Of a stretch of DNA of 64,000 nt, positions 3,323 to 25,700 are shown one piece after another. The stretch covers positions 15,985 to 79,984 of the forward strand of contig CAZTGE010000001.1 in assembly GCA_964612995.1 (NCBI GenBank), in the 5' to 3' direction. Source of the DNA: an uncultured candidatus Brocadiaceae bacterium (GTDB taxonomy: Bacteria > Planctomycetota > UBA11346). Numbering within the stretch: position 1 is the first letter of the stretch; each line of letters starts with the position of its first letter. Both the position numbers and the translations under genes were made by a program. The notes under the pieces were generated by a model, which had not been told where the DNA came from, did not search any database, and was given only the letters and a program-made list of their open reading frames with translations.

Positions 3323-5559
<2,237 letters not shown>

Positions 5560-5605
5560 GCAGGTGGGACGAGTCCGACGGCCAGCAGCGCCCCGCGTGC
5601 CGTGC

Positions 5606-10122: not shown

Positions 10123-10174
10123 CCCCCTGCGATCCGGGGACCACCGGCCGTCACGCTGCGGCTGCGTTCATGGC

Positions 10175-11035
10175 TCATCGGCCCACCTCCGGGCGTACCA
10201 GCCCACGCCGTACCAGGGCGGCGACGGCAGCCTCGAGCCCGTCCTCGGCGCGCAGGGTCACCAGGCCGATGCCACGACCGGCCAGCGCCTGTTGCCAGCC
10301 GGCCTGGTGACGGTCGAGCCGCTCGCGATAGGCGGCGATCGCTGCGGCATCGACCACCCGGTCTGCTGCCCCGCCTTCCGGATCCTCCAGGCGCAGGAGC
10401 CCGGTAACGCTGGGGTCGCGCTCTTCGCGGCTGAGCACCTGCACCAGGCAGATGCTGCCGGCTTCGGCACCGAGCCGGCGCACCACCGCGGGGCCACCCT
10501 CACGGCACAGACCATCCGAGACCAGGATCCGCTCGCCCGCCGGCGCCAGTCGCGGCGTCGGCGCGGTGGCCAGGCCGCCGGCGCCGGCACAGGGCTGATC
10601 GCCGAGCACCGGTCGCCAGTCGCCGCGACCGCCGCCGACGAGCGGTCGCCAGGCGTCTCCCGCCGCAAACAGCCGGACGCGATCGCCGGCGCGCTGCGCG
10701 AGCGTGGTGAACAGCGCCGCGAGGGTCGCGGCGAGCTCCATCTTCTGCGGGGTCAAGGCCATGCTCGCGGAGGTGTCGAGCAGAACCTCGACCCGCGGCG
10801 CAACCTCCTGGCGATAGCGCCGCAACACCAGCTGATCGCTGCGCGCGAGGACGTTCCAGTCGAGGTGACGCAGGTCGTCGCCGGGCATGTAGGCGCGATG
10901 ATCGTGGAACTCGACCGAGGCGCCCGCGCCGGCGCCGAGGCGGTCGCCGGCGCCGTGCCGCCGCCGCCGCGGATCGAGGCACAGGCACAGGGCCGCGGCC
11001 CGGGCGTCGACTGCCGTCCGGTTCCATGCCACCAT
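10175..11035 (-). CDS. DUF58-family protein (MoxR-associated), short variant
   Basis: EFHDHRAYMPGDDLRHLDWN matches the DUF58 signature (E-F-x-x-x-R-x-Y-x-PGDD-x-R-x-IDW). It sits immediately downstream of the ABC permease in the same operon. Confidence 0.75.
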   Translation of the reverse strand: MVAWNRTAVDARAAALCLCLDPRRRRHGAGDRLGAGAGASVEFHDHRAYMPGDDLRHLDWNVLARSDQLVLRRYRQEVAPRVEVLLDTSASMALTPQKMELAATLAALFTTLAQRAGDRVRLFAAGDAWRPLVGGGRGDWRPVLGDQPCAGAGGLATAPTPRLAPAGERILVSDGLCREGGPAVVRRLGAEAGSICLVQVLSREERDPSVTGLLRLEDPEGGAADRVVDAAAIAAYRERLDRHQAGWQQALAGRGIGLVTLRAEDGLEAAVAALVRRGLVRPEVGR

Positions 11036-11042
11036 CGCGACC

Positions 11043-12590
11043 TCAGCTCTCGCGCGGATTGTCGATATCGGCGTCCGCGCGCACCCGGGTGGTCTTGATC
11101 GTCATGTGTGCAAACGCAAACACGAGCTGGGCGAAGATGGCGAAACAACCGGCGAAGGAGATCAGCACGATCGCGACGTCGGCCGTAAACGCATCGATTC
11201 CGACCGCGAGCCCGTCATCGGGCAGGTACACCGGCGCGATCAGCGGATTGAAGGCGTTGAGCACGCCGAAACTGTCCTCGAAGGCCAACGCGGGGATGCT
11301 GGTGATCAGGGCCAGCGCGATGATCGTCGGCAACAACGCGCTGCGCCGCATGCCCGGCGTCTGGATCCAGCCACTGAACGGCCCGCGGCACAACCGATCT
11401 ACGGACACCAGGATGGTCATGCCGTAGGCGATCATCAGCCAGGCGCTGAGCATCAGCTCGGACCAGTCGTCATCCGTTCTGAAGAAGATGGCGACCGCAC
11501 CGACGCCGAGGCTGGCCGCCAGCAACAACAGCGCGGCGAGCGTACCGCGGGCCGCACCGGGGCCGAGGAACCAGGCGGTGGCCTTGCGCCAACCCCGAGC
11601 CTCGCGGATCCAACGCGCCTGGCGTGGCGAGAGCGGGTAGTCCTCGGTACAGGCGAAGGCGGCCAACAGCAACCCCCAGACCGTGCCGAACACAGCGTAG
11701 ACGGCGAACATCTGCGTCACCTCCCGCGCGCGCATATCCGCTAGCGCGATCAGGCCGATGCACCACGCCAGTCCGTTGCACCACACCAGCATCCACACCA
11801 GACGGGGCATGGTCGATCGGTTGTCGGCGCGGAAGGTCAGCTGAGCCGCGCTGAGGCTGAGCAACACTACCACCGCGGCCAGCCACAGGTTGGTCATGAA
11901 GCCGAGGGCGGCGATCACCCCCCAGGGCTCGACCGCGAAGCCGCGGGCCAGACCGCGCGAGACTTCCTCGAGCCCCTCGAGCCACAGCGGCCAGCCCAGG
12001 GACCACACACCGAGTACGCACAGCAGCAGGATCAGGTTGAGCCCACCGCGTCCGCTCTTGTTCGTCTGTACCGTGCCGAGAAAGACCGCGAAACAGGACA
12101 GGGCAATCCCGCCGGCGGCGAGGAGGACCAGCGCCATCAGGATCGAGAGCAGGTCGATGCCCTTGAGCAGATAGGCCATGACCAGGAAGGGGGCGACGGC
12201 GGAGAAATACAGCATGCCCTGGACCAGGCCGGCGAGCAGATAGCCGCGCAGCAACCGGCCCGGACGCATCCCGGTCAGGTCGAGCAGGTCCCAGGTGTTC
12301 TCGTCGCGCTCGCGGATCATGCTCATGTACACGCCCATCGGCTGGATCACCCACAGCGCGAAGCCGAGCACGCCGCAGAGCACGGCGAGCAGGTCGGCTC
12401 CGGCATCCTGCTCGCCGATGGCGATGGTGGCCACGAGCATCGATGCCACTCCCGCGAACAGCAGCAGGATGTTGAACACCACCAGGAAGGTGCGGTTGCG
12501 CAGTTCCTGGCGCACATAGCGGACCAACAAGGGGTTGGCACGATCAGCAAGCCACGGCAACAGCGCAGCGGTACGGGCGAGCGCCTTCAC
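11043..12590 (-). CDS. ABC-2-type transporter permease, unusually large (516 aa, at least 10 predicted TM helices)
   Basis: Inside the 839-aa track ORF, GTG at 12590 overlaps the TGA of the upstream ATPase (GTGA). The product is hydrophobic throughout, with repeated TM segments. The upstream portion of the track ORF is the antisense frame of the ATPase gene. Confidence 0.7.
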   Translation of the reverse strand: MKALARTAALLPWLADRANPLLVRYVRQELRNRTFLVVFNILLLFAGVASMLVATIAIGEQDAGADLLAVLCGVLGFALWVIQPMGVYMSMIRERDENTWDLLDLTGMRPGRLLRGYLLAGLVQGMLYFSAVAPFLVMAYLLKGIDLLSILMALVLLAAGGIALSCFAVFLGTVQTNKSGRGGLNLILLLCVLGVWSLGWPLWLEGLEEVSRGLARGFAVEPWGVIAALGFMTNLWLAAVVVLLSLSAAQLTFRADNRSTMPRLVWMLVWCNGLAWCIGLIALADMRAREVTQMFAVYAVFGTVWGLLLAAFACTEDYPLSPRQARWIREARGWRKATAWFLGPGAARGTLAALLLLAASLGVGAVAIFFRTDDDWSELMLSAWLMIAYGMTILVSVDRLCRGPFSGWIQTPGMRRSALLPTIIALALITSIPALAFEDSFGVLNAFNPLIAPVYLPDDGLAVGIDAFTADVAIVLISFAGCFAIFAQLVFAFAHMTIKTTRVRADADIDNPRES

Positions 12591-13555
12591 TGGACCTTCC
12601 CTTCGGTCAGATGCATGAACACGTCCTCGAGATTGTCGTCGCGGGTGGCGAAGTGGCAGACCGCGAGTTCGGCCGCCAGCAGGCGGCGCAGCAAGGCGGC
12701 GAGCTCGGCGTCGCCGCCGTGGTAGCGCAGCGCGATCTGCGTCTGATCGATACGGATTTCGCTGCACCCCGGCTGCTCGGCGAGGATGGCTTCGGCGCGC
12801 GGGTGCTCTTCGGCCAGGCGCAGCTCGAGCACGTGGCCGTCGCCGTCGCCGGCGGCTACCTGTTGCTGTTTCTTCTCGCGCAGCTGCTGCTTGATCTGCT
12901 TGACCTTGCCCTCGGCCACGATCCGCCCCTGCTCGATGATCGCGACTCCGTCGCACAGCGTCTCGAGCTCGGCGAGGATGTGCGAGGAGACGAACACCGC
13001 CCGGCCCTGCTGCGCAAGCACGCGCAACAGATCGCGGAACTCGATCCGCGCCCGGGGATCGAGCCCCGCGGCCGGTTCGTCGAGGATCAGCACCTGCGGG
13101 TCGTGGATGATGCAGCGCCCGAGGCACAGCCGCTGCTTCATGCCCTTCGACAGCCCGGTGACCGCCTTCTCGCGCAGGCCTTCGAGCTGGCAGAACTCCA
13201 TCACTTCGGCGACCGCCCGGCGGCGCGCGGCCGGAGCCAGACCGTGGGCGCGGGCGAAGAAATCGAGGTACTCGAACACCGTCATGTGGGGGTAGGCACC
13301 GTAATAATCGGGCATGTAGCCGATCATTCGCCGCACCGCGTCGGCGTCGTCCACCGTGCTGCGTCCGTTGACGCGGCAATCGCCAGCGCTGGGCAGGTCG
13401 AGGGTGGCGAGGATGCGCATGGTGGTCGACTTGCCGGCACCGTTGGGGCCGATGAAGCCGTAGATCTCGCCGGCCTCGATGCCGAAGCTGACGTCGTCGA
13501 CCGCGCGGATCGCGCCGAACCGGCGTTCGAGATGATCGACCTCGACCAGGCTCAC
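12587..13555 (-). CDS. ABC transporter ATP-binding protein
   Basis: Walker A GPNGAGKST, signature LSKGMKQRL, Walker B ILILDEPAAGLD, H-loop SSHIL. The start is placed at the GTG giving VSLVEVDHLERRFG (the typical N-terminus), which overlaps the stop of the upstream gene. Confidence 0.85.
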   Translation of the reverse strand: MSLVEVDHLERRFGAIRAVDDVSFGIEAGEIYGFIGPNGAGKSTTMRILATLDLPSAGDCRVNGRSTVDDADAVRRMIGYMPDYYGAYPHMTVFEYLDFFARAHGLAPAARRRAVAEVMEFCQLEGLREKAVTGLSKGMKQRLCLGRCIIHDPQVLILDEPAAGLDPRARIEFRDLLRVLAQQGRAVFVSSHILAELETLCDGVAIIEQGRIVAEGKVKQIKQQLREKKQQQVAAGDGDGHVLELRLAEEHPRAEAILAEQPGCSEIRIDQTQIALRYHGGDAELAALLRRLLAAELAVCHFATRDDNLEDVFMHLTEGKVQ

Positions 13556-15198
13556 GATGCACCTCCGATCGCCACCAGGGGCCCAGCGAGCAGATGGCGA
13601 CCGCTGGTCACGGTCTCGCCCGCCGGTCCGGGGATGTCGGCCAGCGGGCTGGCGAGCACCGCCTGGAAGAAACCGGGCTTGTTCGCCGCGCGTTGCCACG
13701 AGGCGGCGGCGCCGGGCCCGAGCCGTGCCGCACCGCCGAGCGGTCGCGGCTCGCGCGACAACGCGACCAGCTCGATGCTCGCGCCCGGTTCCACCGCGTC
13801 GCAGGCCCAGTGGCGGCCCTTAGGATCGACGTAGTGGAGCTGCTCGATCCGCGTCCCGAGGCCATTGAGCAGCGTATAGCCTCTGGCACCGGCGCTGAGC
13901 TGCAGCCGTTCGCGCGCGGCCTCGACGGTGACGTAGTGCAGACGGGCGCTGCGCCGGGTCGGCACCAGCTGCCCGCTCAACTGCTGGGACCCGTCCCAGT
14001 CGATACGCCAGCTTCTGCCGTCGTGACCGTAGCGATGGCGACGGCGGTCATCGAAGGTGCCCGGGTCGCCCGGCAGCACCGCGGTATCGAGTCCGACCGC
14101 GACCTGGCTGTGTCCGAAGGGGGCATAGTAGCTGATCCCGGTCCAGCGGACCGCACGATGTGCCGGGGCATCGAGCCAGGTGTAGGAATCGACCGTGCGC
14201 CGGGTGTGCAGCCCCTCGGAGAACAGGTTGAACACCACCAGGGCGATGCAGGTGATCAAACTGATCACCGGAATCGAGACCAACAACAGATGCCGCGCCG
14301 CGCGACGCCAGAGCAGGTACCAGAAATTCACCGGTCCGATGAGCACGATGAAGGCGAGGGCGAGAAGGATGAAACCGCCGACCGGCACCTCGCCGACGCC
14401 GGGGATCTCGATATCGCTCGCCGAATGGCGCCGGATGGTCTGTGCCGTCTGGTTGCAGGCGCGTACCCCCTCGTGGTTGGCCCCGGACCAGCTGAGGCGA
14501 CAGACCGGGATCCCGGCGCGACTCCAGGCGTCGTCCGGAGCGGTGGTGGAGGACGGACCGAAAACCGCCAGGGTCCCGCCAGCGCGGACCCAATCGCCGA
14601 GGGCCTGGCGCTGCGCTGCGCTCAGCCGCTCGCTCATCTGCTCGCCGATCACCACCACCATCCACGGCGGAAAACCCTGCCAGCGGTCGGGCAGGTCACC
14701 CGCCTCGAACTGCAACACCCGATCGCGTGCGCTGCTCCGGCCTCGACCCCAGTAGCGACGGTCGATCAACTGGGCCAGCCTGTCGCGCTGGTCCATGTCG
14801 AGCTGACCGACGAAGACGATGTCGGCGCCAGCACCGCTCGCGGTCAGATGACTCGAGCCCCGGAGCCCGGAAGCGCTGCGCCAGCTCAGCGTGACCGGCC
14901 AGAATTCTTCCATCCCCGGCGGCAGCAGCAGCGTGCGCTGATGACTGCCCGCCGGCAGATCCCACTTCGCGCTGGCGCCGCTGAAGCGCGACGTAGCCCG
15001 CACCGTGAGCTCCAGCGGCACGGCGCTGTGGATGCGCACCATCACCGGCGTGTAGCCGACCGGATCGATCCAGAGCATCCGACCTTCGATCTGCGGCCCC
15101 TGGACCTGTGGACCGGAGACCGCGGCCACAAGCTGACCCAAGCAGACAGACGACAGCAACAGCAGGCGCAGAAGCGCGGCGAGCGGCGCGGGGCTCAT
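13552..15198 (-). CDS. ABC transporter-associated membrane protein, possibly a GldG-like auxiliary component: signal peptide, about 270-aa extracytoplasmic domain, 2 TM helices, about 215-aa C-domain
   Basis: ATG at 15198 (MSPAPLAALLRLLLLSSVCLG) overlaps the moxR stop (ATGA). TM pair GGFILLALAFIVLIGPVNFWYLLW and LLLVSIPVISLITCIALVVF. The family assignment is inference from gene context (ABC ATPase and ABC-2 permease immediately downstream). Confidence 0.55.
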   Translation of the reverse strand: MSPAPLAALLRLLLLSSVCLGQLVAAVSGPQVQGPQIEGRMLWIDPVGYTPVMVRIHSAVPLELTVRATSRFSGASAKWDLPAGSHQRTLLLPPGMEEFWPVTLSWRSASGLRGSSHLTASGAGADIVFVGQLDMDQRDRLAQLIDRRYWGRGRSSARDRVLQFEAGDLPDRWQGFPPWMVVVIGEQMSERLSAAQRQALGDWVRAGGTLAVFGPSSTTAPDDAWSRAGIPVCRLSWSGANHEGVRACNQTAQTIRRHSASDIEIPGVGEVPVGGFILLALAFIVLIGPVNFWYLLWRRAARHLLLVSIPVISLITCIALVVFNLFSEGLHTRRTVDSYTWLDAPAHRAVRWTGISYYAPFGHSQVAVGLDTAVLPGDPGTFDDRRRHRYGHDGRSWRIDWDGSQQLSGQLVPTRRSARLHYVTVEAARERLQLSAGARGYTLLNGLGTRIEQLHYVDPKGRHWACDAVEPGASIELVALSREPRPLGGAARLGPGAAASWQRAANKPGFFQAVLASPLADIPGPAGETVTSGRHLLAGPLVAIGGAS

Positions 15199-16199
15199 AC
15201 CGCGAGCTCGGGGGTTTCGGCGATCAGGGTCCGGACCACGGCCGCCGCGTCGAGATCCTCGAGCCCGGCCTCGTAGCCGAGTACCAGGCGATGGGCCAGG
15301 GTCGGCACCGCCACCGCGCGTACGTCCTCGAAGCCGACCGCCGGCCGGCCAGCGAGCAGCGCCGCAGCCCGGGCGCAAGCGGCGAGGGTCAGCGCCGCGC
15401 GCGGGCTCGCGCCCCAGCGGACGTAACGGCGCACGCACTCCGGGCTGGTCTCGCGATCGGGACGGGTGGCGTCGACGAGGTGGGCGAGGTAGCGCCCCAC
15501 CGCCTCGGGCAGGGCGACCCGACGCACGGCCGCGAGCAGCTCGGCGAGTCCGGCGGCATCGGTGACCGGCTCGGGGACCGGCGCCACCCCGCTCTGACGC
15601 TGCAACACGATCTGCGCCAGCACCGAACGCTCGACGCCGGCGACCGTGACCTTCATCGCGAAACGGTCCAGCTGGGCTTCGGGCAGCGGATAGGTCCCAT
15701 CGAGCTCGATCGGGTTCTGGGTCGCGAGGACGAAGAAGGGCTCGGGCAGGCGATGGGTGGTCTCGAGCACGGTGACGCTGTGTTCCTGCATCGCCTCGAG
15801 CAGCGCCGACTGGGTCTTGGGGCTCGCGCGGTTGATCTCGTCGGCGAGCACGATCTGGGCGAAGACCGGCCCGGGGCGGAAGACCTGTTCGCGTCCGCCG
15901 TCGGGGGTCTGCTGCAACACATGGGTCCCGGTGATGTCGCCCGGCAGCAAGTCGGGGGTGAACTGGATGCGCTTGTAGTCGCAACCGCACAGGGACCCCA
16001 GAGCCTTGACCAGCTCGGTCTTGCCCAGGCCCGGCAGCCCTTCGAGCAACACGTGGCCGCCGGCGAGCATCCCGGTCAGGGTCAGGCGGGTCATCGCCTC
16101 CTGACCGAGGAGGACCTGATCCATCCCCGCGAGGATCGCGCGCGCACGCGTGCGGCAGGTCTCGACCTCGGTTTCACTGATCATCGGCATCTGCGTCAT
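15195..16199 (-). CDS. MoxR-family AAA+ ATPase
   Basis: Walker A GLPGLGKT, Walker B VLADEINRASPKTQSALLEAMQE, and the typical MoxR C-terminal helical domain. Start at MTQMPMISETE (ATG 16199) after the RBS-like GGATGA. Confidence 0.9.
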   Translation of the reverse strand: MTQMPMISETEVETCRTRARAILAGMDQVLLGQEAMTRLTLTGMLAGGHVLLEGLPGLGKTELVKALGSLCGCDYKRIQFTPDLLPGDITGTHVLQQTPDGGREQVFRPGPVFAQIVLADEINRASPKTQSALLEAMQEHSVTVLETTHRLPEPFFVLATQNPIELDGTYPLPEAQLDRFAMKVTVAGVERSVLAQIVLQRQSGVAPVPEPVTDAAGLAELLAAVRRVALPEAVGRYLAHLVDATRPDRETSPECVRRYVRWGASPRAALTLAACARAAALLAGRPAVGFEDVRAVAVPTLAHRLVLGYEAGLEDLDAAAVVRTLIAETPELAV

Positions 16200-17589
16200 C
16201 CTGTTCGCTGGCGAAGTAGCGTTGCACCGCGGCGCGGTGGCGTGGAGCGATCCGGGCCCGACGCGCATCGGCCGCTCCAGGCCCGATGTCACGCAGGCGC
16301 GCGCGTTGCAGCGCGCGGTTGGCGGCGTCGTCGAGCTCGGGCGCCCGCCGGCTCTCGGCCAGGGTCACCGAGCCGTCGGAGTTGATGCGGGCGCCGGCCG
16401 GCAGGCCTTCCAGCTCGCCGGGTTCGGTCTCCTGCTGCTGGTGGGTCAGTTCGAGCGCGGCGGCGCCGGGCCCGCGGGCGATGCCACCGCGACCCGGCTG
16501 CCCGCCAAGGCGCTGGAGCAGACGTGCGAAATCATCGCCGCGACCGAGGCCCGAGCGTTCGCCCGCAGCCGCGAGCGCGGCGCCGAGCCGTTGTGCCAGG
16601 GCCTGTTCGGCCGCCGGATCGCGCGCGCCTTGCCTCCCGCGATCGCCCTGGCCTGCGCCTGGCAGCAACCCGCGTTCGCGCAGGCGATCCAGCGCCTCGT
16701 CATCGAGCATTCCTTGCGCCGCCGCGGCGTCGAGCACGCGCGCGAGCTCGGCGTGGCCCGGCTGACCCTGTTGCGGCAGCAGACCCGGCGCCTGCCTGGC
16801 CAGCCTGGTCAGTGCCTGCGCCAGCGCCGCTGACTCGCGTTCGCGCGCAGCCGGATCGGCAGTGGCGGTGCGCCGTGCCTGCGCCAGAGCCTCAGCCAGC
16901 CGCTGCGTGCTGCGGCGCTGTTCGGCGCCGAGGCCGGCCGCGAGACGGTCCAGTCCTTCCCACACCGCCTGATCCATGCCACGCTCGTTCGCGGCCGTGG
17001 CGATCGACTCGAGCTGCTCCAACAGCTCCTGCTTGCGTTCCTGGCTCAGCACCCCCTCCTCGGCCATCTGCTCGAGCAGCTCCCGTGGCTGTGCGAGCAG
17101 TTGATCAACCCGCCCTGCGGACGAGCTGCCGGGATCGCGCTGGGGCAGCGCCACGGCGATCAGCACCGCGAGCACGGCGACCAGCACGCGGCCGCTACCG
17201 CTCCAGTCTAAGGGCGGCAGCCGGACCCGATCGAGACAAGGGCGCAGGCGTTGCAGCCAGCCCGGATCGCGCGCTGCGGGCTCCTCGTCGGCCAGGGCCA
17301 TCGCCAGACCGCGCGACTGCGCGAGTCGATCCAACCGCGCCGCCGTGATCGCATGCGGCTCCGGAGGACCGTACCACCGGCGTGACAGCAGAATCGGCGC
17401 CACCAGTCCGACCACGGGCAGCCACACCACAGTCGACGACCATCCGGGCAATGCGAGACGGATGCACACTTGCACCAGCGCGACCGCACCGAGCGACAAC
17501 GCCCAGGCCGTCAGCAACCGCCCGAGACAGCGCTGCAGCCGCTGGCGGCGATCGACCGCGCACATGAGTTGTTCGAGCCGCTGAGCCAT
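16174..17589 (-). CDS. membrane protein (three N-terminal TM helices plus a long Ala/Arg/Gln/Leu-rich predicted helical region); first gene of the operon
   Basis: ORF 16174-17589, with hydrophobic segments in the first 150 aa. Its 3' end overlaps the moxR start by 26 nt, consistent with translational coupling. No family recognised by eye. A DUF4129/DUF4350-type MoxR partner is a possibility only. Confidence 0.5.
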   Translation of the reverse strand: MAQRLEQLMCAVDRRQRLQRCLGRLLTAWALSLGAVALVQVCIRLALPGWSSTVVWLPVVGLVAPILLSRRWYGPPEPHAITAARLDRLAQSRGLAMALADEEPAARDPGWLQRLRPCLDRVRLPPLDWSGSGRVLVAVLAVLIAVALPQRDPGSSSAGRVDQLLAQPRELLEQMAEEGVLSQERKQELLEQLESIATAANERGMDQAVWEGLDRLAAGLGAEQRRSTQRLAEALAQARRTATADPAARERESAALAQALTRLARQAPGLLPQQGQPGHAELARVLDAAAAQGMLDDEALDRLRERGLLPGAGQGDRGRQGARDPAAEQALAQRLGAALAAAGERSGLGRGDDFARLLQRLGGQPGRGGIARGPGAAALELTHQQQETEPGELEGLPAGARINSDGSVTLAESRRAPELDDAANRALQRARLRDIGPGAADARRARIAPRHRAAVQRYFASEQDDADADDQ

Positions 17590-17719
17590 TCTCGGATCCC
17601 ATCAGGTGCCGTACGGCGGCAGCATATACCACCGGGGACGTATGATCCAGGCACAGCCATCAGCGAGGGCTTCACCCCCGTCAATCGAAGGAGGTGCATC
17701 GCCAGCACGCGCTGCTATC

Positions 17720-18028
17720 ATGTGCCACATGGCTACGCGATCGACCTGCCTGCTCGTGGAAACCGAATTCCGCACCCTGCTCGAGGCCTTGCACGGCTAC
17801 CTGCTGCGTGATCGCTCTGCCGAGGATCCGGCAGCCTGCGAGGAGTGCGTACAGGGCCTCGATCGGCCTCAGTGCGAGGCACTCCATCGGCGCCTGCAGC
17901 GCTTGCATGCCGATTGTCGGTTGTTGTTGCAGGATATGCACACCCTGGAGGACGCGAGCGATACGCCGGCCAGCGATCCGGCGTTCGAACACGCCGGCGG
18001 GGCCTCTACTCCCCGAACTTCTCTTTGA
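17720..18028 (+). CDS. possible small Cys-rich hypothetical protein
   Basis: Starts at ATG 17720 inside ORF 17606-18028. It is convergent with the ACP-like gene and overlaps it by 23 nt. No recognisable family, and high GC makes chance ORFs likely. Confidence 0.2.
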   Translation: MCHMATRSTCLLVETEFRTLLEALHGYLLRDRSAEDPAACEECVQGLDRPQCEALHRRLQRLHADCRLLLQDMHTLEDASDTPASDPAFEHAGGASTPRTSL

Positions 18029-18287
18029 TCCGCCCGTCGATGAAGTCGATGGCCTCGCCGATGGTCTTCATACCCTCATCGCCGGGCAGGACCTCGTCGA
18101 AATTGATGCTGAAGGCGTCTTCGAGGTCCATGGTGATCTCGGCGATGTCGAGATGGTTGTCAGTGATCGCCGGGACCAGCTCCTGGTGCTCGTAGTCGTA
18201 ATCCGGATCTTCGCCCGGCAGAGGCAGGTTGTGCAGTTTGTTGCACAACAGCTCGATGACTTCTTCGGAAATCCGTTTGCGATCCAT
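18006..18287 (-). CDS. acyl carrier protein paralog lacking the phosphopantetheine-attachment serine (DNH-LDIAEI in place of DS-LDIAEI)
   Basis: Hand translation of the reverse complement gives PAITDNHLDIAEITMDLEDAFSINFDEV. Helix II (LDIAEIxMDLEDAF) is 14/15 identical to the acpP product at 19591-19839. The codon before L is CAT (His), which is not one substitution away from any Ser codon. ATG start, 93 aa. Confidence 0.7.
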   Translation of the reverse strand: MDRKRISEEVIELLCNKLHNLPLPGEDPDYDYEHQELVPAITDNHLDIAEITMDLEDAFSINFDEVLPGDEGMKTIGEAIDFIDGRIKEKFGE

Positions 18288-18347
18288 CGCCGGGTGCTCG
18301 ATATCGTTGCAGGGGGCGGGGGCGGCCGAAGCCGCGCAAGGCGCGGT

Positions 18348-19598
18348 TCAGCCGGTGAAGCGTTTGAATACCACGCAGGCGTTGTGCCCACCGAACCCCA
18401 GGTTGTTGGAGAGGCCGTAGTCGACTTGAAGCTCACGGGCCTCGTTGGGGATGTAATCCAGATCGCACTCCGGATCCGGGGTGGTGTAATTGGCGGTCGG
18501 CGGCAACACGCCATCGCGCAGGGCGCAGATGGTGGCGATGGCCTCGATCCCGCCAGCGGCACCGAGCGCATGCCCGGTCACGCCCTTGGTGCTGCTCACG
18601 GGCAGCGCGCGGGCGTGGTCGCCGAAGACCTTCTTGATGATCAGGGTCTCGGTCTTGTCATTCGGCGGGGTCGAGGTGCCGTGCGCGTTGAGATAACCGA
18701 GCTGCTCCGGCGCGATACCGGCGTCGGCCAGCGCGGCGCGCATGCAGGCTGCGCCCGAGATGCCCTCGGTGTCCGGCGCGGTCTCGTGGAAGGCATCGCC
18801 GTTGCAGGCGGCTCCGACCACTTCGCCGTAGATCGTGGCTCCGCGTTTGCGCGCATGCTCGAACTCCTCGAGCACCAGCACCCCCGCGCCCTCGGCCATG
18901 ACGAAGCCGTCACGGTCGCGGTCGAAGGGCCGACTGGCGGTCTCGGGCGAGTCGTTGCGCTTGGACAGTGCGCCGATGCTGTTGAAGCCGGCGAAGCCGA
19001 GATGGCTGATCGGGGCTTCGGCACCACCGCAGATCATCACGTCGCACTGGCCCGACCGGATATGGTTGAGCGCGGCGCCGATGGAGTGGGAACCGGTGGC
19101 GCAAGCGGTGGTGATACTGTAGTTGGGGCCCTTGGCGCCGTAGACGATCGAGATGTCGCCAGCAGCGCTGTCGACGATCATCTTGGGCACCAGGAAGGCG
19201 CTGACCCGGCGGGGGCCCTTTTCGACGAAGGCGGCGTGTTCCAGCTCGATGGTGCGCAGCCCGCCGATGCCGGAGCCGACCACCACCCCGATCCGGAACG
19301 GATCGGGGAGGGAGCCTTTCTCCAGCCCGGCCATGGCCATGGCCTCGGCTGCGGCCTTGATCGCCAGCAGGCTGTAACGGTCCTTGCGGCGCGCGCCACG
19401 TCGATCGCCGTCGGTCAGTTCGACGTCCTCGAGGTCGACCTCGCCGCAGAACTTGGTCGCGTGCTGTTCGGCATCGATCCGGGTGGTCGGGCCGATGCCC
19501 CCCCGCCCGGCGGTGGTCGCGGACCAGAAGGCATCGACACCGATGCCGTTGGCCGCGAGCACACCCATGCCGGTGACGACGACGCGTCGATCAGCCAT
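18348..19598 (-). CDS. fabF: beta-ketoacyl-[ACP] synthase II
   Basis: Full-length KAS II pattern: active-site TACATGSHSIG, catalytic His motifs NAHGTSTPPNDKTE and GVTGHALGAAGG, C-terminal NLGFGGHNACVVFK. Confidence 0.95.
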   Translation of the reverse strand: MADRRVVVTGMGVLAANGIGVDAFWSATTAGRGGIGPTTRIDAEQHATKFCGEVDLEDVELTDGDRRGARRKDRYSLLAIKAAAEAMAMAGLEKGSLPDPFRIGVVVGSGIGGLRTIELEHAAFVEKGPRRVSAFLVPKMIVDSAAGDISIVYGAKGPNYSITTACATGSHSIGAALNHIRSGQCDVMICGGAEAPISHLGFAGFNSIGALSKRNDSPETASRPFDRDRDGFVMAEGAGVLVLEEFEHARKRGATIYGEVVGAACNGDAFHETAPDTEGISGAACMRAALADAGIAPEQLGYLNAHGTSTPPNDKTETLIIKKVFGDHARALPVSSTKGVTGHALGAAGGIEAIATICALRDGVLPPTANYTTPDPECDLDYIPNEARELQVDYGLSNNLGFGGHNACVVFKRFTG

Positions 19599-19839
19599 TG
19601 CTCTCCGCGACCTTCTGCTCGATGAACTTGATGATGTCGCCGACGGTCTGGGGACCCTCAGCGTTGTCGTCCTCGAGCTTGACGCCGAAAGCGTCTTCCA
19701 GGTCCATCATGATCTCGGCGATGTCGAGCGAATCGGCACCGAGGTCGGCGATCACGTTGCTCTCCGGTTTGACCGCGTCCTTCTCTTTGTCGAGACGCTC
19801 GGCGATGATGTCGATGACCTTGTCTGCGATGTCGCTCAC
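19591..19839 (-). CDS. acpP: acyl carrier protein
   Basis: Canonical LGADSLDIAEIMMDLEDAFGV with the phosphopantetheine Ser. GTG start preceded by GGAGCAGCC. 82 aa. Confidence 0.9.
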   Translation of the reverse strand: MSDIADKVIDIIAERLDKEKDAVKPESNVIADLGADSLDIAEIMMDLEDAFGVKLEDDNAEGPQTVGDIIKFIEQKVAESNG

Positions 19840-20144
19840 GGCTGCTCCTGCCTTCCATCTGTCCGGTTGGAGGGCTGTCGGGAAATCGTCCGGACGGTGC
19901 CAGGGCAGCCGGGCGACAAACGCCGGGGCCGGACGGATTCCCAGGGTGAATGGAATATGGACAAGAAGCGGGATGATGAGCATCGTGCGGATGCCGTCAA
20001 GCGAAGACGCTTCCATCAGAGCCCCCGCCGGCCCTGCGGGCCGGCGACGAAGAGCCAGGAACTTGGCCGCCCCGGACGTTTGTCGCAATGACGCGACCCG
20101 GACCGTGAGCGTGTCGAATGAGCGAGATGGTGTGCGGAGTTCCT

Positions 20145-20449: not shown

Positions 20450-20992
20450 GTGGCCCTGGAGACGGCGATGGTCCTGGTCCGGTGGGAGCGCATCCGGCAC
20501 ATCCTCTGCGACGTCGACGGCGTGCTGACCGAAGGCATCCTCACCTACACCGCAGACGGTGAACAGACCAAAACCTTCAGTGCTCGCGACGGGCATCTGA
20601 TCCGCGTCGCCCTGCGCGCCGGCATCGGTGTCGGGCTGGTCAGCGGCCGACGCTGCGCGGCGCTCGCCAATCGCGCCGACGACCTGGGGTTGAGCCCCTG
20701 TTTCCTGGGCGTGAGCGACAAACGCGCGGTGGTCGCCGACTGGCTGGCGCAGACCGATGGGCTCGACTGGGAACACCTCGCCTTCGTCGGCGACGACCTG
20801 CCGGATCTGCGCCTGTTCGGCGCGGTTGGTTGCGCGGTGGCGGTGGGCGACGCCGCGCCGCGGCTACGACAGTGCGCCGATCTGGTCACCGCGGCACCTG
20901 GCGGGCGCGGTGCAGTGGGCGAGTTCATCGAGCGCCTGCTGCGCCGGCGCGGCGCCTGGAGCCCCGACGAGTGGGGTCGGGTCCATGGCTAG
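20450..20992 (+). CDS. kdsC: 3-deoxy-D-manno-octulosonate 8-phosphate phosphatase (HAD superfamily, KdsC)
   Basis: HAD motif I (LCDVDGVLTEG), GRRCAALANRADDLG, and the C-terminal FVGDDLPDL pattern characteristic of KdsC. GTG 20450 or ATG 20468. Confidence 0.8.
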   Translation: MALETAMVLVRWERIRHILCDVDGVLTEGILTYTADGEQTKTFSARDGHLIRVALRAGIGVGLVSGRRCAALANRADDLGLSPCFLGVSDKRAVVADWLAQTDGLDWEHLAFVGDDLPDLRLFGAVGCAVAVGDAAPRLRQCADLVTAAPGGRGAVGEFIERLLRRRGAWSPDEWGRVHG

Positions 20993-21632
20993 CCGCGCCG
21001 CCTGCCGGTCGGGGCGCATGGTCGCCTGGGGCCTGCTGCTCGGCTGCTGGATGCTGCTCGGCTGCAGCGATCCCCCACCGCTGCCCGAACCCGGCGTCGT
21101 CGGCGGACTGCTCCACCTCTGGCGCGCTGGCGAGGCCGAACCGGTGGTGGCGAGCGCCCACCGGGTGCGTCAGCTCGGCGCTGATCTCGGGCAGCTGCGA
21201 TTCCAGGTCCTGCGCGCGTGGATCCCCCTGCGCCAGGGGCGCCTGGTCGTCGCCGCGCCAGCCGGAACGATGGACACTGCCGCCGACACCAGTGCGGAAC
21301 GCCACCGCATCGCGATTCCGGAGGAGGACGGCCCGATCCGTTTCACCGGCGTCGAACGCGGCGAACCCTTCGTTGGCGTTGCCACGCACGGCGCCATCAG
21401 CGACGGTGGCCGGGTATTGGTCCTCCATGCGGTCAAACTGATCCAGGCCGGCCGGGCCTATCGCATGGCCCGGCTCGAGGTGCCCGAGGCCCTGTCCCGC
21501 CGCGAACTGCGCTACATGGTCGGCGAAGGCGACATCGCCGATCGGCCGGCGACGGCAACGCTGTGCGTTGCGCTCGGGGCGCTGCCACGCGATCTGCAGC
21601 TCGATCCCCCCGCCCAGCCCCCCACGCCCTGA
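20985..21632 (+). CDS. lipoprotein, possibly LptC-like
   Basis: ATG 20985 overlaps the kdsC stop. Signal peptide with lipobox (LLGCWMLLGC-S). The position after kdsC suggests LptC, but no sequence-level support. Confidence 0.45.
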   Translation: MASRAACRSGRMVAWGLLLGCWMLLGCSDPPPLPEPGVVGGLLHLWRAGEAEPVVASAHRVRQLGADLGQLRFQVLRAWIPLRQGRLVVAAPAGTMDTAADTSAERHRIAIPEEDGPIRFTGVERGEPFVGVATHGAISDGGRVLVLHAVKLIQAGRAYRMARLEVPEALSRRELRYMVGEGDIADRPATATLCVALGALPRDLQLDPPAQPPTP

Positions 21633-21637
21633 GCCGA

Positions 21638-23860
21638 TCAGGGCAGGCGGTTGGCCCGGCGCAGAGCCCAATCGACGCACAGCAGCCCGACCACCAGCAG
21701 GAAGACCCAGAACCGGTCCCACAGCCGGATGAAATGGCGGCTCTGCTCGTGGTGGGAGAGATCGGGCAGGGCGGCGATCAGCCGCGCGGCCGCGTTGCCC
21801 CCCTCCGCTGCATCGGGCTCGGGCGGACCCCAGACCCCCGTGCGCCCGCCGCTGGCAGCGGAGAGCCGGGCCATGGCCTCGTGGTCGGCGCGCGGATCGC
21901 GCCGTTCGCGCTGCGAGGGCAGCACCACCAGCTCGCCAGCGCGTACGTCGGTCGCGGGCAGACCGTCGATCAATTCGAGGTGCCAGGATCCGGGTTGCCC
22001 CGGCGCCGGCACCTCGGCCGCGAAAGCCGGCTCGCCCGGCACCCGCAACAGCCGGTACTTGAGCCGGCGATCGCCAGGCCCGCGCAGCTGGACGGTGACC
22101 GCGTCGGGCAGGTCGGAGCGCTGCTCGCCCGGCGTCTGGGGGGCCACGGCAAGCTGGACGCGCTGCCCCGTCTGGGCGCGGTAGGGCGTGGCGGCGGCCC
22201 GCCAGGGGTGGGTGTCCAGACCCTTGCCCGCGCTGGCGTAGCGCAGCAGCGGGCTGTGGAAGCGGTTGAGGTAGTAGTCGCCGACGTTGCGCCGCCAGCG
22301 CCAGGTGTCGTCCACCGCGACCAGCACGCTGCGTCCGGCGCCGATGCGCCGCGCCACCACCACCGGTTCGCCGGAGCGGGCCTCCATCAGCACCTGGGCC
22401 GGCTGGCGCAGGGAGCCGATCGGCAGCAGACCACGCAGGCGCGGCAGCGCCTGCCAGGTCCCGCTGCCGGGATCGAACAATTTCAGACCCCTCGCTGCCG
22501 GAGCGCGACGGATCGCCCGGGCCTCGTTGGCGAGGTAACCGCGCTGGATCTCGGCGGTGGACGGCAGTTCGGCCGGAATCAGCTTGCTCAATGGGCCGTC
22601 GCGGAACCCGGCGATGGCGCCGCGTTCGCCGGGGATCCACACCAGGCCGAGCCCCTGCTGACGCACCGCGGTGGCGAGGTTGTTCATCTGGGTCTTGTCG
22701 AGCGTGTGCGCATCGATGTCGCCGATGATCACCGCATGGTAGTCCTCGAGCTGGACCGTGCCCAGCGGCAGCACGGTGCCGCCGTAGCGCTCGTCGCCCC
22801 AGCGCCGCCACCCGCCGTCGGCGAGATAGGAGTGGACGGTGACGGTCTGATCGCGGTCGAGCGCGTTGCGCAGATAGCGCATCTCGTAGCGTGGGTGGTG
22901 CGCGAGCATCAGCACCTGGAGGTTGCGCGGTCTGACCTCGACCGGGATCGACATGCGGTGAGACAACTCGCCAGCGGTGACCTCGGCGGTGAGCCCGGCT
23001 CGACCCTCGTCGTGGAGGGTGACATCGAGCTCGGGGCTGAAAGACTGCACCGTGACCGGGTCTGCAGCGGGATCGGGCGTGAGCGTGGTCTGTGCGAGGA
23101 CCTCGTCACCCTGGCGGATGCGCACGGTGATCGGCGCGTCGCCGAGGCTGCGCCCGCTGAAACGGACCTCGAAGGGGTTGGCCTCGCCCAGGGCGAGGTC
23201 GCGGTTGCCCTCGATCTCGTCGATGTGCAGCTCAGGGCTGACAGCCGTGCCGCCGACGCTCAGAGTCCACACGCCGTGCTCCGGGCCGCGGCCGCGAGCG
23301 AGCGAGCGCCCCACCGCGTCGAGCGCCGGACCGTCGTTGACGCGCCCGTCGCTGACCAGGATCACCAGCTCGTACTGGGGATCGCGCGCGACCTCGCCGA
23401 CCTGGCTGCCCAGCGGGCTGATCGGAGCGTCGGCCGCGAGCGCGTCGAGCTCATCATCGTCGACCCGGGCGAGCGCGTCGCCGAGCCGGTACCAGCTGAC
23501 CGTGTGCCCGTCGGTCACCGTGGCGAGCGCGGCGCGCAACGGAGCGAGCACGGCGAGCCGGTTGTCGAGGCCGGGAGCGTCGTCGCGGGCCATCGAGGCC
23601 GAGGTGTCGACCAGCACCGCGATGCGTCCGGGCTTGCTGGTGGTGATGGTCTCGCGCCAGCTCGGGTCGGCGATGCAGGCGACCAGCAACAGGATCGCGA
23701 GCACCCGACAGACCCGCGACAGCCAGCCGGCCAGCCCCGGCGGCCGCGGGCCGTAGCGACGCCAGGCCCACCAGCACAGCGCCGCGGCCCCGAGGACATA
23801 GAGGTAGAGCATCCACCCCTGGGCGTTGGCGAGCACGAATTCCAGATCGCTAGCGCCCAT
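21638..23860 (-). CDS. VWA-domain membrane protein (BatB-like), N- and C-terminal TM segments
   Basis: MIDAS motif IAVLVDTSASMARDD, N-terminal TM (LYLYVLGAAALCWWAW), C-terminal TM (FWVFLLVVGLLCV). Confidence 0.75.
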   Translation of the reverse strand: MGASDLEFVLANAQGWMLYLYVLGAAALCWWAWRRYGPRPPGLAGWLSRVCRVLAILLLVACIADPSWRETITTSKPGRIAVLVDTSASMARDDAPGLDNRLAVLAPLRAALATVTDGHTVSWYRLGDALARVDDDELDALAADAPISPLGSQVGEVARDPQYELVILVSDGRVNDGPALDAVGRSLARGRGPEHGVWTLSVGGTAVSPELHIDEIEGNRDLALGEANPFEVRFSGRSLGDAPITVRIRQGDEVLAQTTLTPDPAADPVTVQSFSPELDVTLHDEGRAGLTAEVTAGELSHRMSIPVEVRPRNLQVLMLAHHPRYEMRYLRNALDRDQTVTVHSYLADGGWRRWGDERYGGTVLPLGTVQLEDYHAVIIGDIDAHTLDKTQMNNLATAVRQQGLGLVWIPGERGAIAGFRDGPLSKLIPAELPSTAEIQRGYLANEARAIRRAPAARGLKLFDPGSGTWQALPRLRGLLPIGSLRQPAQVLMEARSGEPVVVARRIGAGRSVLVAVDDTWRWRRNVGDYYLNRFHSPLLRYASAGKGLDTHPWRAAATPYRAQTGQRVQLAVAPQTPGEQRSDLPDAVTVQLRGPGDRRLKYRLLRVPGEPAFAAEVPAPGQPGSWHLELIDGLPATDVRAGELVVLPSQRERRDPRADHEAMARLSAASGGRTGVWGPPEPDAAEGGNAAARLIAALPDLSHHEQSRHFIRLWDRFWVFLLVVGLLCVDWALRRANRLP

Positions 23861-25700
23861 AGGCCCTCCCGGCCCAGGCGGCGAACGCGCCCTCGCCCAA
23901 GGCGACCAGCAGCACCAGGATCAGCAGGGGCAGGCCCCAATCACGGCCCCGGGCCCGCGGCAGGACCGCAGCGATATCGATCGCCGAGGCCGGCGGACCG
24001 CCGGTCAGGCGGCTCTCTTCGGGATCGGCAAACACCAGCACCGGCTGGGCCTCGGCGGCATCGCTCGTCTGCGCCTGCCACAGGCCGGGAGCGACGAGCA
24101 ACGGCGCACCGAGCGGCCAGGACACACGCTCGCCCTCGCGCACCAGGGTCTGTTCGCGTTGGGCCCGCATGCCGGCCTGCAACAGGCGGGGGCGACCGGC
24201 GTCCGCGGCCAGCTGACGGACGCTACGCTGAACCCACAGGGTCGAGGCACCCAGGGCCCAGAAAGGGGAGAGGGATTCGAGCGCGACCAGCTCGCAGACC
24301 ACCCGCCCGCGGCCGGCCTGCAGCGCCACCACCAGAGGGGCCTCGCCGGCGCGCAGCAGCACCCGTGCGTGGCCGGGCAGGATGAACGCGCTCACGCCAT
24401 CTTTCTCGGATTGGCCGAGCCCGGCATGGCGCAGGTAGCTGTCGAGGATCGGCTCGCCGCTGTTGAAGACTCCGCCTGGCAGCAGCTGGTCGCGGTTGGG
24501 CTCAAGACCGGCGACCAATCCGGCGAGCTCGGAGTCGGCACGCAACATGTCGTAGCTGGCCCAGAGAATGCCGCCGGCCTCGACCCAGGCGACCAGTTCA
24601 TCGGCCGCCGCCGGGCGCTCGCGCAACAGGATCAGACCGTCGGATTCCAGCGGTCGGCTGGCCAGCTCGTCGGCGCGCAAGCGATCGACGTCGAGGTAGC
24701 GACCCGCCGCAGCCAGGGCGGTGCCAAGCATGCTGCGCCCGCTGCCGACCACCAGTGTCGGCAGCGCCTTGCGCACGCGCAGCGGCAGCTCGATGGCGTC
24801 GTCGTAGGTCAGGCCGTCGTCGTGCAGGCGTACGCGCACCCGGTGCTCGCCGACGCCCAGCGGCGGCAACGCCACCCGCGCCAGGCCATCGGTCACGCTG
24901 AGTTCCACCGGCAAGGGCGAGCCGTCGTCGACGCTCAGGCTGGCCCGGCGCGGCGTGCCGGCCACCCGCAGGGCGAGCTCGCTAACCGCTCCGGGGGCCG
25001 GTTCGGGCAGCTCGGCGATACCGGCGATGAAGGCGTTGTCGGCGGATTCGCCGACCGGCAGGCGGTTGACGCTGCGGACCCGCTCGCGCAGCACCGCTTC
25101 GAGCTGGGTGCCGTCGTCCTGACGGAAATCGGAGACCAGCAGGACATCGGTGTTGCGATCGCAGTGCGCGAGCACCGCTTCGGCCAGCTCGCCGGTCGCG
25201 GCACGATCCAGGCCACCGGGCACCGGAGTGGCATCGAGCTCCTCGAGCAGTCGCAGCGCACGACGCGGGTCAACGCTCTGACCGCCGGTAAGAGCGTTGA
25301 CCCGTCGGTCGACCGTCAACACCACCACCGCGTCGGTATCGATGCTGGCCTCGCTCATCGCGCGGCGGAAGGCCGCCAGCGCGCCGGTGCCATCACGCAG
25401 CGCGCCCATGCTCGCGGTGGTGTCGATCACCAGCAGCAGGCGACCACCCGAACCGAAACCGGCGAGGCTCGGACGGGCCAGGGCCAGGGCGAGCAGGGCG
25501 ACGATCAGACAGCGCAGCAGCAACAGCAGCAGATTGGTCAGGCGATACCGGCGCTGCGCAACCTCGAGCGCAGCCAGCAGCCAGGTCATCGCGGCCCAGG
25601 GCCGGTCCTTGGGTCGCTGGCGCAGCAGCAGGTGGATGGCGATGGGCGCGGCGATGGCCAGGCCACCCCACAGGAGCCCCATGTTGACGAAACTGAACAC
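23850..25700 (-). CDS. BatA-like protein (BatA N-terminal domain plus VWA domain)
   Basis: N-terminus MFSFVNMGLLWGGLAIAAPIAIHLLLRQR (BatA_N). MIDAS motif LLLVIDTTASMGA. C-terminal TM LPLLILVLLVALG. Overlaps the downstream VWA gene by 11 nt. Confidence 0.75.
   Translation of the reverse strand: MFSFVNMGLLWGGLAIAAPIAIHLLLRQRPKDRPWAAMTWLLAALEVAQRRYRLTNLLLLLLRCLIVALLALALARPSLAGFGSGGRLLLVIDTTASMGALRDGTGALAAFRRAMSEASIDTDAVVVLTVDRRVNALTGGQSVDPRRALRLLEELDATPVPGGLDRAATGELAEAVLAHCDRNTDVLLVSDFRQDDGTQLEAVLRERVRSVNRLPVGESADNAFIAGIAELPEPAPGAVSELALRVAGTPRRASLSVDDGSPLPVELSVTDGLARVALPPLGVGEHRVRVRLHDDGLTYDDAIELPLRVRKALPTLVVGSGRSMLGTALAAAGRYLDVDRLRADELASRPLESDGLILLRERPAAADELVAWVEAGGILWASYDMLRADSELAGLVAGLEPNRDQLLPGGVFNSGEPILDSYLRHAGLGQSEKDGVSAFILPGHARVLLRAGEAPLVVALQAGRGRVVCELVALESLSPFWALGASTLWVQRSVRQLAADAGRPRLLQAGMRAQREQTLVREGERVSWPLGAPLLVAPGLWQAQTSDAAEAQPVLVFADPEESRLTGGPPASAIDIAAVLPRARGRDWGLPLLILVLLVALGEGAFAAWAGRAYGR

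Follow-up and report, generated by a model that had tools for sequence, protein, structure and literature searches.

Lipid synthesis in bacteria centres on acyl carrier protein (ACP), whose docking helix is recognised by dozens of enzymes. We analysed a 64,000-nucleotide (nt) stretch of contig CAZTGE010000001.1 from an uncultured candidatus Brocadiaceae bacterium (Planctomycetota), hereafter the window, in which the gene for a canonical ACP (acpP) and that for a condensing enzyme (fabF) are followed by a third gene for an ACP-like protein without the serine that would carry the phosphopantetheine (Ppant) group. This gene order had been given in a preliminary description made from the letters alone, and it is borne out, as is the open reading frame (ORF) of the third gene. 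Genes are named by their positions on the whole stretch, and all three operon genes lie on the minus strand. The features of the locus are as follows.

19973-20000, minus strand: sigma-70-like promoter match upstream of acpP (TTGACG-16-CATCAT), weak, a consensus match only
19591-19839, minus strand: acpP, canonical ACP of 82 amino acids (aa), GTG start, DSL serine present
18348-19598, minus strand: fabF, beta-ketoacyl-ACP synthase II of 416 aa, ATG start
18323-18354, minus strand: GC-rich RNA hairpin running from the final fabF codons across the stop codon, without a U-tract
18006-18287, minus strand: ACP-like gene, 93 aa, a serine-less ACP paralogue
18153-18155, minus strand: His45 codon (CAT) at the phosphopantetheinyl serine position, placed there by three alignments
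18111-18152, minus strand: helix II (L46-F59), the ACP recognition helix, 13 of 14 residues identical to the AcpP of the window

The first two genes are unremarkable members of their families. The AcpP of the window matches PF00550 at E 2.6e-12 and exceeds the NCBIfam ACP cutoffs (82.8 and 88.2 bits, the latter for NF002148 with a cutoff of 71). The fabF start overlaps the acpP stop by 8 nt, and FabF scores 561 bits against the TIGR03150 fabF equivalog (cutoff 493.75), has both the N and the C ketoacyl-synt Pfam domains, and shows in its translation the TACATG motif of the active-site Cys as well as HGTST and GH, the two His motifs. The ACP-like gene follows fabF after 60 nt, in frame. The promoter scan gave one sigma-70-like match, against 0.2 expected in shuffled sequence.

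The attachment serine is indeed replaced by histidine in the ACP-like protein, whose motif reads D-N-H-L. Three independent alignments agree on this point, with His45 falling on the DSL serine in a MAFFT alignment with Escherichia coli AcpP and 32 clade AcpPs, and likewise in the BLASTP and the HMMER profile-to-PDB alignments. Ser-less orthologues, which the preliminary description had proposed to look for, were found at 53 related loci, and the loss is family-wide. Across the 49 loci that could be aligned at this site the residue is H in 24, P in 21, E in two, and D and Q in one each; N and G occur in additional members, and four loci chosen through FabF have His, His, Pro and Gln. Neither Ser nor Thr occupies the site in any of about 60 sequences of the ACP-like family, four members among the 49 loci have no serine in the whole protein, and Asn usually stands in place of the DSL Asp. 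The AcpPs encoded in the same genomes retain the Ser at 100% (32 distinct clade AcpPs). With Ser and Thr both absent from the site in every member, it appears that the ACP-like protein cannot be made holo by the canonical route, which supports for that route the earlier claim that it is not convertible. The variability of the site also indicates that the replacing residue is not itself a functional element.

What the protein has retained is the docking helix. Helix II of the ACP-like protein, LDIAEITMDLEDAF, differs at one residue from that of the AcpP of the window, LDIAEIMMDLEDAF, so that the near identity noted at the outset holds. Nine of its positions (L46, D47, E50, M53, D54, E56, D57, A58 and F59) are invariant in a 46-member alignment and 98-100% conserved across all fetched loci. 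The invariant positions correspond to E. coli AcpP L37, D38, E41, M44, E47, E48 and F50, residues that dock on basic patches of client enzymes in crosslinked AcpP-enzyme structures. The family pattern LD(I/V)AE..MDLEDAF is invariant or nearly so, and the acidic recognition helix is thus present throughout. Between a paralogue and the AcpP of its own genome, mean identity is 84% in helix II and 29% elsewhere, and the constraint on this helix is, to judge from the alignments, as strict as in AcpP itself. Gene conversion was considered as a source of the near-identical helix and rejected, as identical codons are used at 0.64 within and 0.58 between genomes, and the I/V variants of AcpP and paralogue do not co-occur per genome. 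The likeness is best read as selection on the protein. Median pairwise dN/dS at the same loci is 0.36 for the ACP-like gene, 0.27 for FabF and 0.16 for AcpP, values from partly saturated comparisons of which only the ranking and the fact of being well below 1 are trustworthy; they indicate that the ACP-like gene is under purifying selection.

A database search returned 46 homologues of the ACP-like protein at 53-100% identity, all unnamed, 'hypothetical' or auto-named 'acyl carrier protein', and all from metagenome-assembled genomes (MAGs) of Planctomycetota or from metagenomes. Scanning one genome per GTDB species found the gene in 44 species representatives (L005-L048), all of them MAGs and none an isolate; these and metagenome contigs make up the 53 related loci, all labelled Planctomycetota. 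The ORF is intact in all 53, and with locus GC anywhere between 45 and 74% the family has evidently persisted while the genomes diverged widely. In a profile search of 1.84 billion 50%-identity representatives, about nine clusters belong to the family; after these the E-value leaps from 1e-21 to 1e-9 and ordinary ACPs begin, the first being planctomycete AcpPs that share LGADSLDIAEIMMDLEDAFGVKLEE with the AcpP of the window. The same search gave no fusion proteins of the Rosetta-stone kind that might name a partner, only family clusters and then ordinary ACPs. The nearest relatives outside the family are therefore the clade's own AcpPs, in support of the suggested derivation from acpP, and the family appears to be a narrow, clade-specific offshoot of that gene.

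Sequencing error as a source of the missing serine is excluded, since the identical 93-aa protein occurs in three separate assemblies (GCA_048617035.1, GCA_048615975.1 and the Logan assembly of SRR11308339) and the Ser is lost in all relatives; the objection that resequencing would reveal a Ser codon is thereby ruled out. One family member, P0051, a protein of 192 aa from an ENA metagenome contig, has a hydrophobic C-terminal extension of about 100 aa after the ACP-like domain. Known from this single contig, the extension is probably a frameshift or read-through artefact, or else a rare membrane-anchored variant. Most family records are labelled only 'Planctomycetota bacterium'. Five MAGs (L030, L034, L037, L039 and L047) were deposited as 'Brocadiaceae' or 'Candidatus Kuenenia', and their locus GC is 60-71%. 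As the Kuenenia genome has a GC content of roughly 41%, these labels look unreliable.

The ACP-like protein is 31% identical to the AcpP of the window (BLASTP, E 8e-12) and similarly acidic, with a pI of 4.2 and a net charge of about -17, against a pI of 4.05 for AcpP. Its AlphaFold2 (AF2) model has a pLDDT of 88.8 and a pTM of 0.79, with helices at 3-17, 45-59 and 76-91. The top 50 Foldseek matches in the PDB are all ACPs (TM 0.6-0.8), and a HMMER family profile matches ACPs only among PDB entries, so that the protein is confidently predicted to be an ACP-fold paralogue. Family models nevertheless pass it by: PF00550 does not match the protein of the window at E <= 1 and matches just six of 44 aligned sequences, one of the six being AcpP itself; TIGR00517 gives 21.5 bits against a cutoff of 70.45; and the best NCBIfam match, confined to the C-terminal half, reaches 25.9 against 66. 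No Pfam or NCBIfam model captures the family.

Several features set the family apart. Loop I is about nine residues longer than in AcpP, with an invariant L21-P22 and a conserved (F/Y)DYE.Q.LVP(D/E)IT stretch, and the N-terminus reads MDRKRI, with R5 invariant. In the AF2 model and the alignment, the helix III region is swapped for a loop with an invariant Pro68-Gly69 insertion. Positions that line the acyl pocket are bulkier (I54 is replaced by an invariant Phe and A68 by Val), and the hydrophobic core positions of ACP are retained. The alignment has 20 invariant columns, and the features invariant in this family only are R5, E9, K17, L21-P22, P39, T42, F63 and the P68-G69 insertion. From these changes we infer that the acyl pocket is closed or filled and that the protein has a new, family-specific surface.

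The position after fabF is invariant. At all 48 of the loci found through the ACP-like protein the gene lies directly downstream of fabF, and acpP lies upstream of fabF wherever the contig reaches that far; three truncated loci were completed by other contigs of the same MAGs. At four of four loci picked independently, through FabF similarity, the ACP-like gene again follows fabF. The flanking genes otherwise vary between loci. The gap between fabF and the paralogue runs from -1 to 130 nt, with one locus at 399 nt; it is below 20 nt in about half of the loci, and in two the genes overlap. With gaps so short, the ACP-like gene is apparently co-transcribed with fabF, and often translationally coupled to it.

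A hairpin had been described between the two genes at about 18325-18340. It exists, at coordinates a few bases off these (18323-18354), with a core of CCGCGC/GCGCGG at 18332-18346 and a minimum free energy of -35.7 kcal/mol (z -3.76 against shuffles). It was not called as an intrinsic terminator in the terminator scan. In 25 loci the gap is shorter than 30 nt and has no room for such a hairpin, and comparable folding is found in only seven of the 23 longer gaps; a conserved regulatory element or terminator at this place is hence unsupported, the structure of the window also having no U-tract. We regard it as a local feature outside the conserved module, which may adjust the FabF-to-paralogue ratio. 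Past the stop codon of the ACP-like gene, a candidate hairpin folds no better than shuffles (z -0.9). Three other loci (L002, L003 and L014) have a strong hairpin of their own directly after the fabF stop, for example CCGGUUUUG...CAAAACCGG. In a subclade comprising L007, L012, L013, L016 and L018, a conserved GGUUGCC...GACUGCGCCGCCCC stretch lies upstream of the ACP-like start, and the ORF may have an N-terminal extension (MSTVTDM...), which leaves the start codon uncertain in this subclade.

Further analysis of the neighbourhood showed no obvious partner gene: beyond acpP and fabF, the conserved neighbours at the compared loci are just a gene for protein-L-isoaspartate O-methyltransferase (PCMT), at about 22 loci, and a divergent lipoprotein-like gene. 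The rows concerned are these.

L001 6332-7171, L023 5312-5932, L068 4587-5231, L069 4882-5538 and 17 other loci, same strand as the ACP-like gene: PCMT gene (PF01135)
window 20450-20992, plus strand: KdsC-like HAD phosphatase (PF08282), divergent from acpP; also in L070
window about 20985-21632, plus strand: conserved protein of about 190-240 aa, divergent from acpP, no Pfam match
L001 3601-4227, L002 3499-4167, L004 3548-4264 and L068-L071: divergent genes of this pair in relatives, the KdsC-like one being seen in L070

A PCMT gene (E 1e-47 to 1e-55 for PF01135) comes next after the ACP-like gene, in the same orientation, in 20 of the 43 loci whose downstream sequence is long enough, and in two of the four picked through FabF, giving the order acpP-fabF-ACP-like-pcm; the window has no PCMT gene. 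Asn-His, a dipeptide prone to deamidation, stands at the former Ser site in nearly all loci with PCMT, and His-His or Asn-Pro in a few. A functional link between PCMT and Asn-His is conceivable from the pattern, which may equally be plain phylogenetic co-inheritance.

On the other side of the operon, several copies of the divergent protein of about 190-240 aa carry a lipoprotein-type signal (LLGC or LAGC, for example), and identity across loci is 25-35%. The order of the two divergent genes resembles what we take to be the proteobacterial kdsC-lptC arrangement. Downstream, a convergent ORF of 99 aa (17729-18028, plus strand) shares 23 nt with the 3' end of the ACP-like gene; it was called as a gene by NCBI in this genome, contains a CEEC motif and has no Pfam match. 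An alternative call at the same place, a 103-aa ORF on the opposite strand, looks like antisense noise. A terminator-like hairpin lies on the plus strand at 17998-18015. The fab module as a whole is embedded in large BatA / VWA / DUF58 / MoxR-type AAA+ clusters (about 4000-17600 and 21600-25700, both minus strand; annotated by Pfam on L065). The 69% GC of the window gives rise to many long, spurious, overlapping ORFs in all frames, and Rfam and tRNA scans found no RNA genes in it.

The gene is thus real, conserved and under selection, and its product combines an ACP fold with loss of the attachment Ser, a retained helix II and an invariant place behind fabF. We suggest, tentatively and at a little under an even chance, that it is a paralogue of ACP without prosthetic group, one that uses helix II to dock at a site for ACP, with FabF as the prime candidate, and acts as a roughly stoichiometric regulator or competitor. 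The gene would have arisen from the lineage's own acpP by duplication within an uncultured clade of Planctomycetota, and the duplicate would then have been fixed across the whole clade as the third gene of an acpP-fabF-ACP-like operon. The protein would be unable to carry acyl chains: Ser and Thr are missing at the attachment site, which drifts freely (H, P, E, D, Q, N or G), and helix III with the pocket entrance is remodelled. The acidic helix II would have been retained for docking on the basic patches of client enzymes. FabF is the first candidate for such docking because the ACP-like gene appears to be co-transcribed, and often translationally coupled, with fabF. Once docked, the protein might serve as a regulatory subunit or competitor of FabF in about equal amount, tuning the access of acyl-AcpP and malonyl-AcpP and hence chain elongation and lipid supply. 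Conjectural in this proposal are the docking at an ACP site, the choice of partner and which way the effect would go. The preliminary description had offered a regulator or decoy for FabF and other ACP clients, or an interaction module, and such a role is plausible and the one we favour.

Several points weigh against FabF regulation as we propose it. Synteny is what singles out FabF as the partner, and the stable hairpin of the window between fabF and the ACP-like gene may uncouple their expression. AcpP is normally very abundant, and a protein present in amounts like those of FabF would compete poorly in general without much tighter binding or a binding site elsewhere. The residues invariant in this family only point to an extra interface, so that a pure decoy model may be too simple. 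The dN/dS values, as noted, come from partly saturated comparisons, and the PCMT gene downstream on the same strand in about 22 loci is left unexplained by the model.

An extra interface would fit a different role, in which the protein serves some partner outside fatty-acid synthesis as adaptor or structural subunit; this we think possible though rather unlikely. Here helix II would act together with the family-specific surfaces (the basic motif at the N-terminus, the longer loop LP...DYE.Q.LVP.IT and the F63/PG insertion) to hold or activate the partner, and the position after fabF would merely ensure co-expression with lipid synthesis. ACP is known in such roles, serving LYR proteins and Nfs1 in mitochondria and MukB and SpoT in E. 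coli; in the best-known cases, however, its binding to LYR proteins or SpoT depends on the Ppant or acyl group, which is absent here. The family-specific invariant residues outside helix II favour an adaptor, as do the envelope-related neighbours, namely the KdsC-like HAD and the conserved lipoprotein that diverge upstream and, near L004, KdtA and KdsA. A further precedent is the mitochondrial ACP (mACP) of Plasmodium, which has no Ppant and yet is essential as a partner of Isd11-Nfs1 (PMC8547962). The Phe that replaces Ser in that protein is functional in itself, whereas the Ser site here is variable, and no conserved gene for a partner accompanies acpP and fabF. Helix II is also the common docking element of all ACP clients, and the protein might therefore modulate clients other than FabF in the general manner of apo-ACP, acting as a brake on PlsX/PlsY-type acyltransferases, LpxA/LpxD or AcpS through which the output of membrane lipid would be tied to fab operon expression. 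Apo-ACP of E. coli inhibits glycerol-3-phosphate acyltransferase more strongly than holo-ACP does (PMC3896788), and lipopolysaccharide and Kdo genes lie near several of the loci. The invariant linkage is nevertheless to fabF and not to pls or lpx genes, and abundant AcpP poses the same problem of stoichiometry, so that we consider a general modulator of this kind improbable.

That the protein is still a carrier or ligand binder, with another residue modified or a lipid held non-covalently in the pocket, seems to us very unlikely. Thr42, three residues before the Ser site, is 98-100% conserved, and the core positions of ACP are kept. Thr42, however, aligns with AcpP Gly33 in the loop before helix II and not with the N-terminus of that helix, and this loop position is not where phosphopantetheinyl transferases act. 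These enzymes are moreover Ser-specific so far as is known, and E. coli ACP with S36T is not known to be modified. The usual replacement of the DSL Asp by Asn speaks against carriage as well, and the bulkier pocket residues, together with the Pro-Gly loop in place of the helix III gate, argue for a filled pocket. A dead remnant of a tandem acpP duplication, or a mis-called ORF, could account for the loss of a catalytically essential residue and for the absent Pfam match. Conservation all but rules this explanation out: 53 of 53 loci have an intact ORF, dN/dS is well below 1, the invariant columns persist, the predicted fold is confident and the position is strictly conserved.

Taken together with the comparisons below, the observations allow a bolder version of FabF regulation, which we hold to be unlikely in its entirety. 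The protein would then be a dedicated 'pseudo-ACP', the first in bacteria: an obligate subunit without cofactor, produced along with FabF, whose ACP docking site it fills or gates. It would provide a clade-specific, protein-level control of elongation and so be the counterpart, in type II fatty-acid synthesis (FASII), of plant BADC and its target acetyl-CoA carboxylase (ACCase); in the subclade with pcm, deamidation of Asn-His might add a damage- or age-dependent switch. A conserved, separately encoded ACP without prosthetic group but with the docking helix would mean that the ACP fold serves purely for protein binding in bacteria too, and not in apicomplexan organelles alone; it would also hint at a so far undescribed layer of FASII regulation acting on the condensing enzyme, a target of antibiotics. 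As its three components are small, soluble and adjacent, the hypothesis is directly testable with synthetic genes. The public labels, 'hypothetical protein' or, misleadingly, 'acyl carrier protein', also call for annotation pipelines that separate this family from true carriers, a separation that matters for ACP counts and for the prediction of lipid and polyketide capacity in Planctomycetota MAGs.

We found no description in the literature of a bacterial Ser-less ACP next to fabF, and comparison with known systems is accordingly with more distant cases. Canonical AcpP, as modelled by TIGR00517 and PF00550, is like the ACP-like protein in fold, acidity and helix II; the latter differs by its loss of Ser, longer loop I, Pro-Gly loop for helix III and sub-threshold scores. 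A counterpart in kind is the mACP of Plasmodium falciparum, in which Ser is replaced by Phe, no Ppant is attached, and the protein is essential as a binding partner (Falekun et al., 2021; PMC8547962). In that case the replacing Phe contributes to the Isd11 interface, the compartment no longer has FASII, and a search that started from mACP turned up Ser-less ACPs beyond Apicomplexa in a chromerid only (PMC8547962). Both proteins are Ser-less ACP homologues that keep the helix II glutamates and work, here presumably, by protein-protein binding. Their origins are independent, one in a eukaryotic organelle and the other in a planctomycete acpP duplicate, and the planctomycete Ser-site residue is variable and hydrophilic or Pro, in contrast to the conserved Phe of mACP. 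The planctomycete gene lies, moreover, inside an active-looking FASII operon beside canonical AcpP and FabF, and none of the compared loci has a conserved LYR-type neighbour.

Apo-AcpP of E. coli, which binds clients and inhibits glycerol-3-phosphate acyltransferase and fatty-acid synthesis (reviewed in PMC3896788), shows by analogy that biological activity is to be expected of a Ser-less ACP whose helix II is intact. In E. coli, however, this is a pathological state of the single AcpP, whereas the planctomycete protein would be dedicated, separately encoded, conserved and equipped with extra surfaces. The BADC proteins of plants are biotin-less homologues of BCCP (biotin carboxyl carrier protein) which inhibit heteromeric ACCase and are thought to compete with the true BCCP carrier for the enzyme complex (10.1101/634550; PMC12706156). 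They too are carrier paralogues minus the attachment residue, and the planctomycete protein is encoded beside a Ser-bearing AcpP in every locus that is long enough. One system is a biotinyl domain and ACCase in eukaryotic plastids, the other an ACP and FASII in bacteria; the parallel is therefore an analogy only, by which competition by the planctomycete protein is plausible. With these systems the ACP-like family belongs among the cofactor-less paralogues of carrier proteins, as a so far unannotated member.

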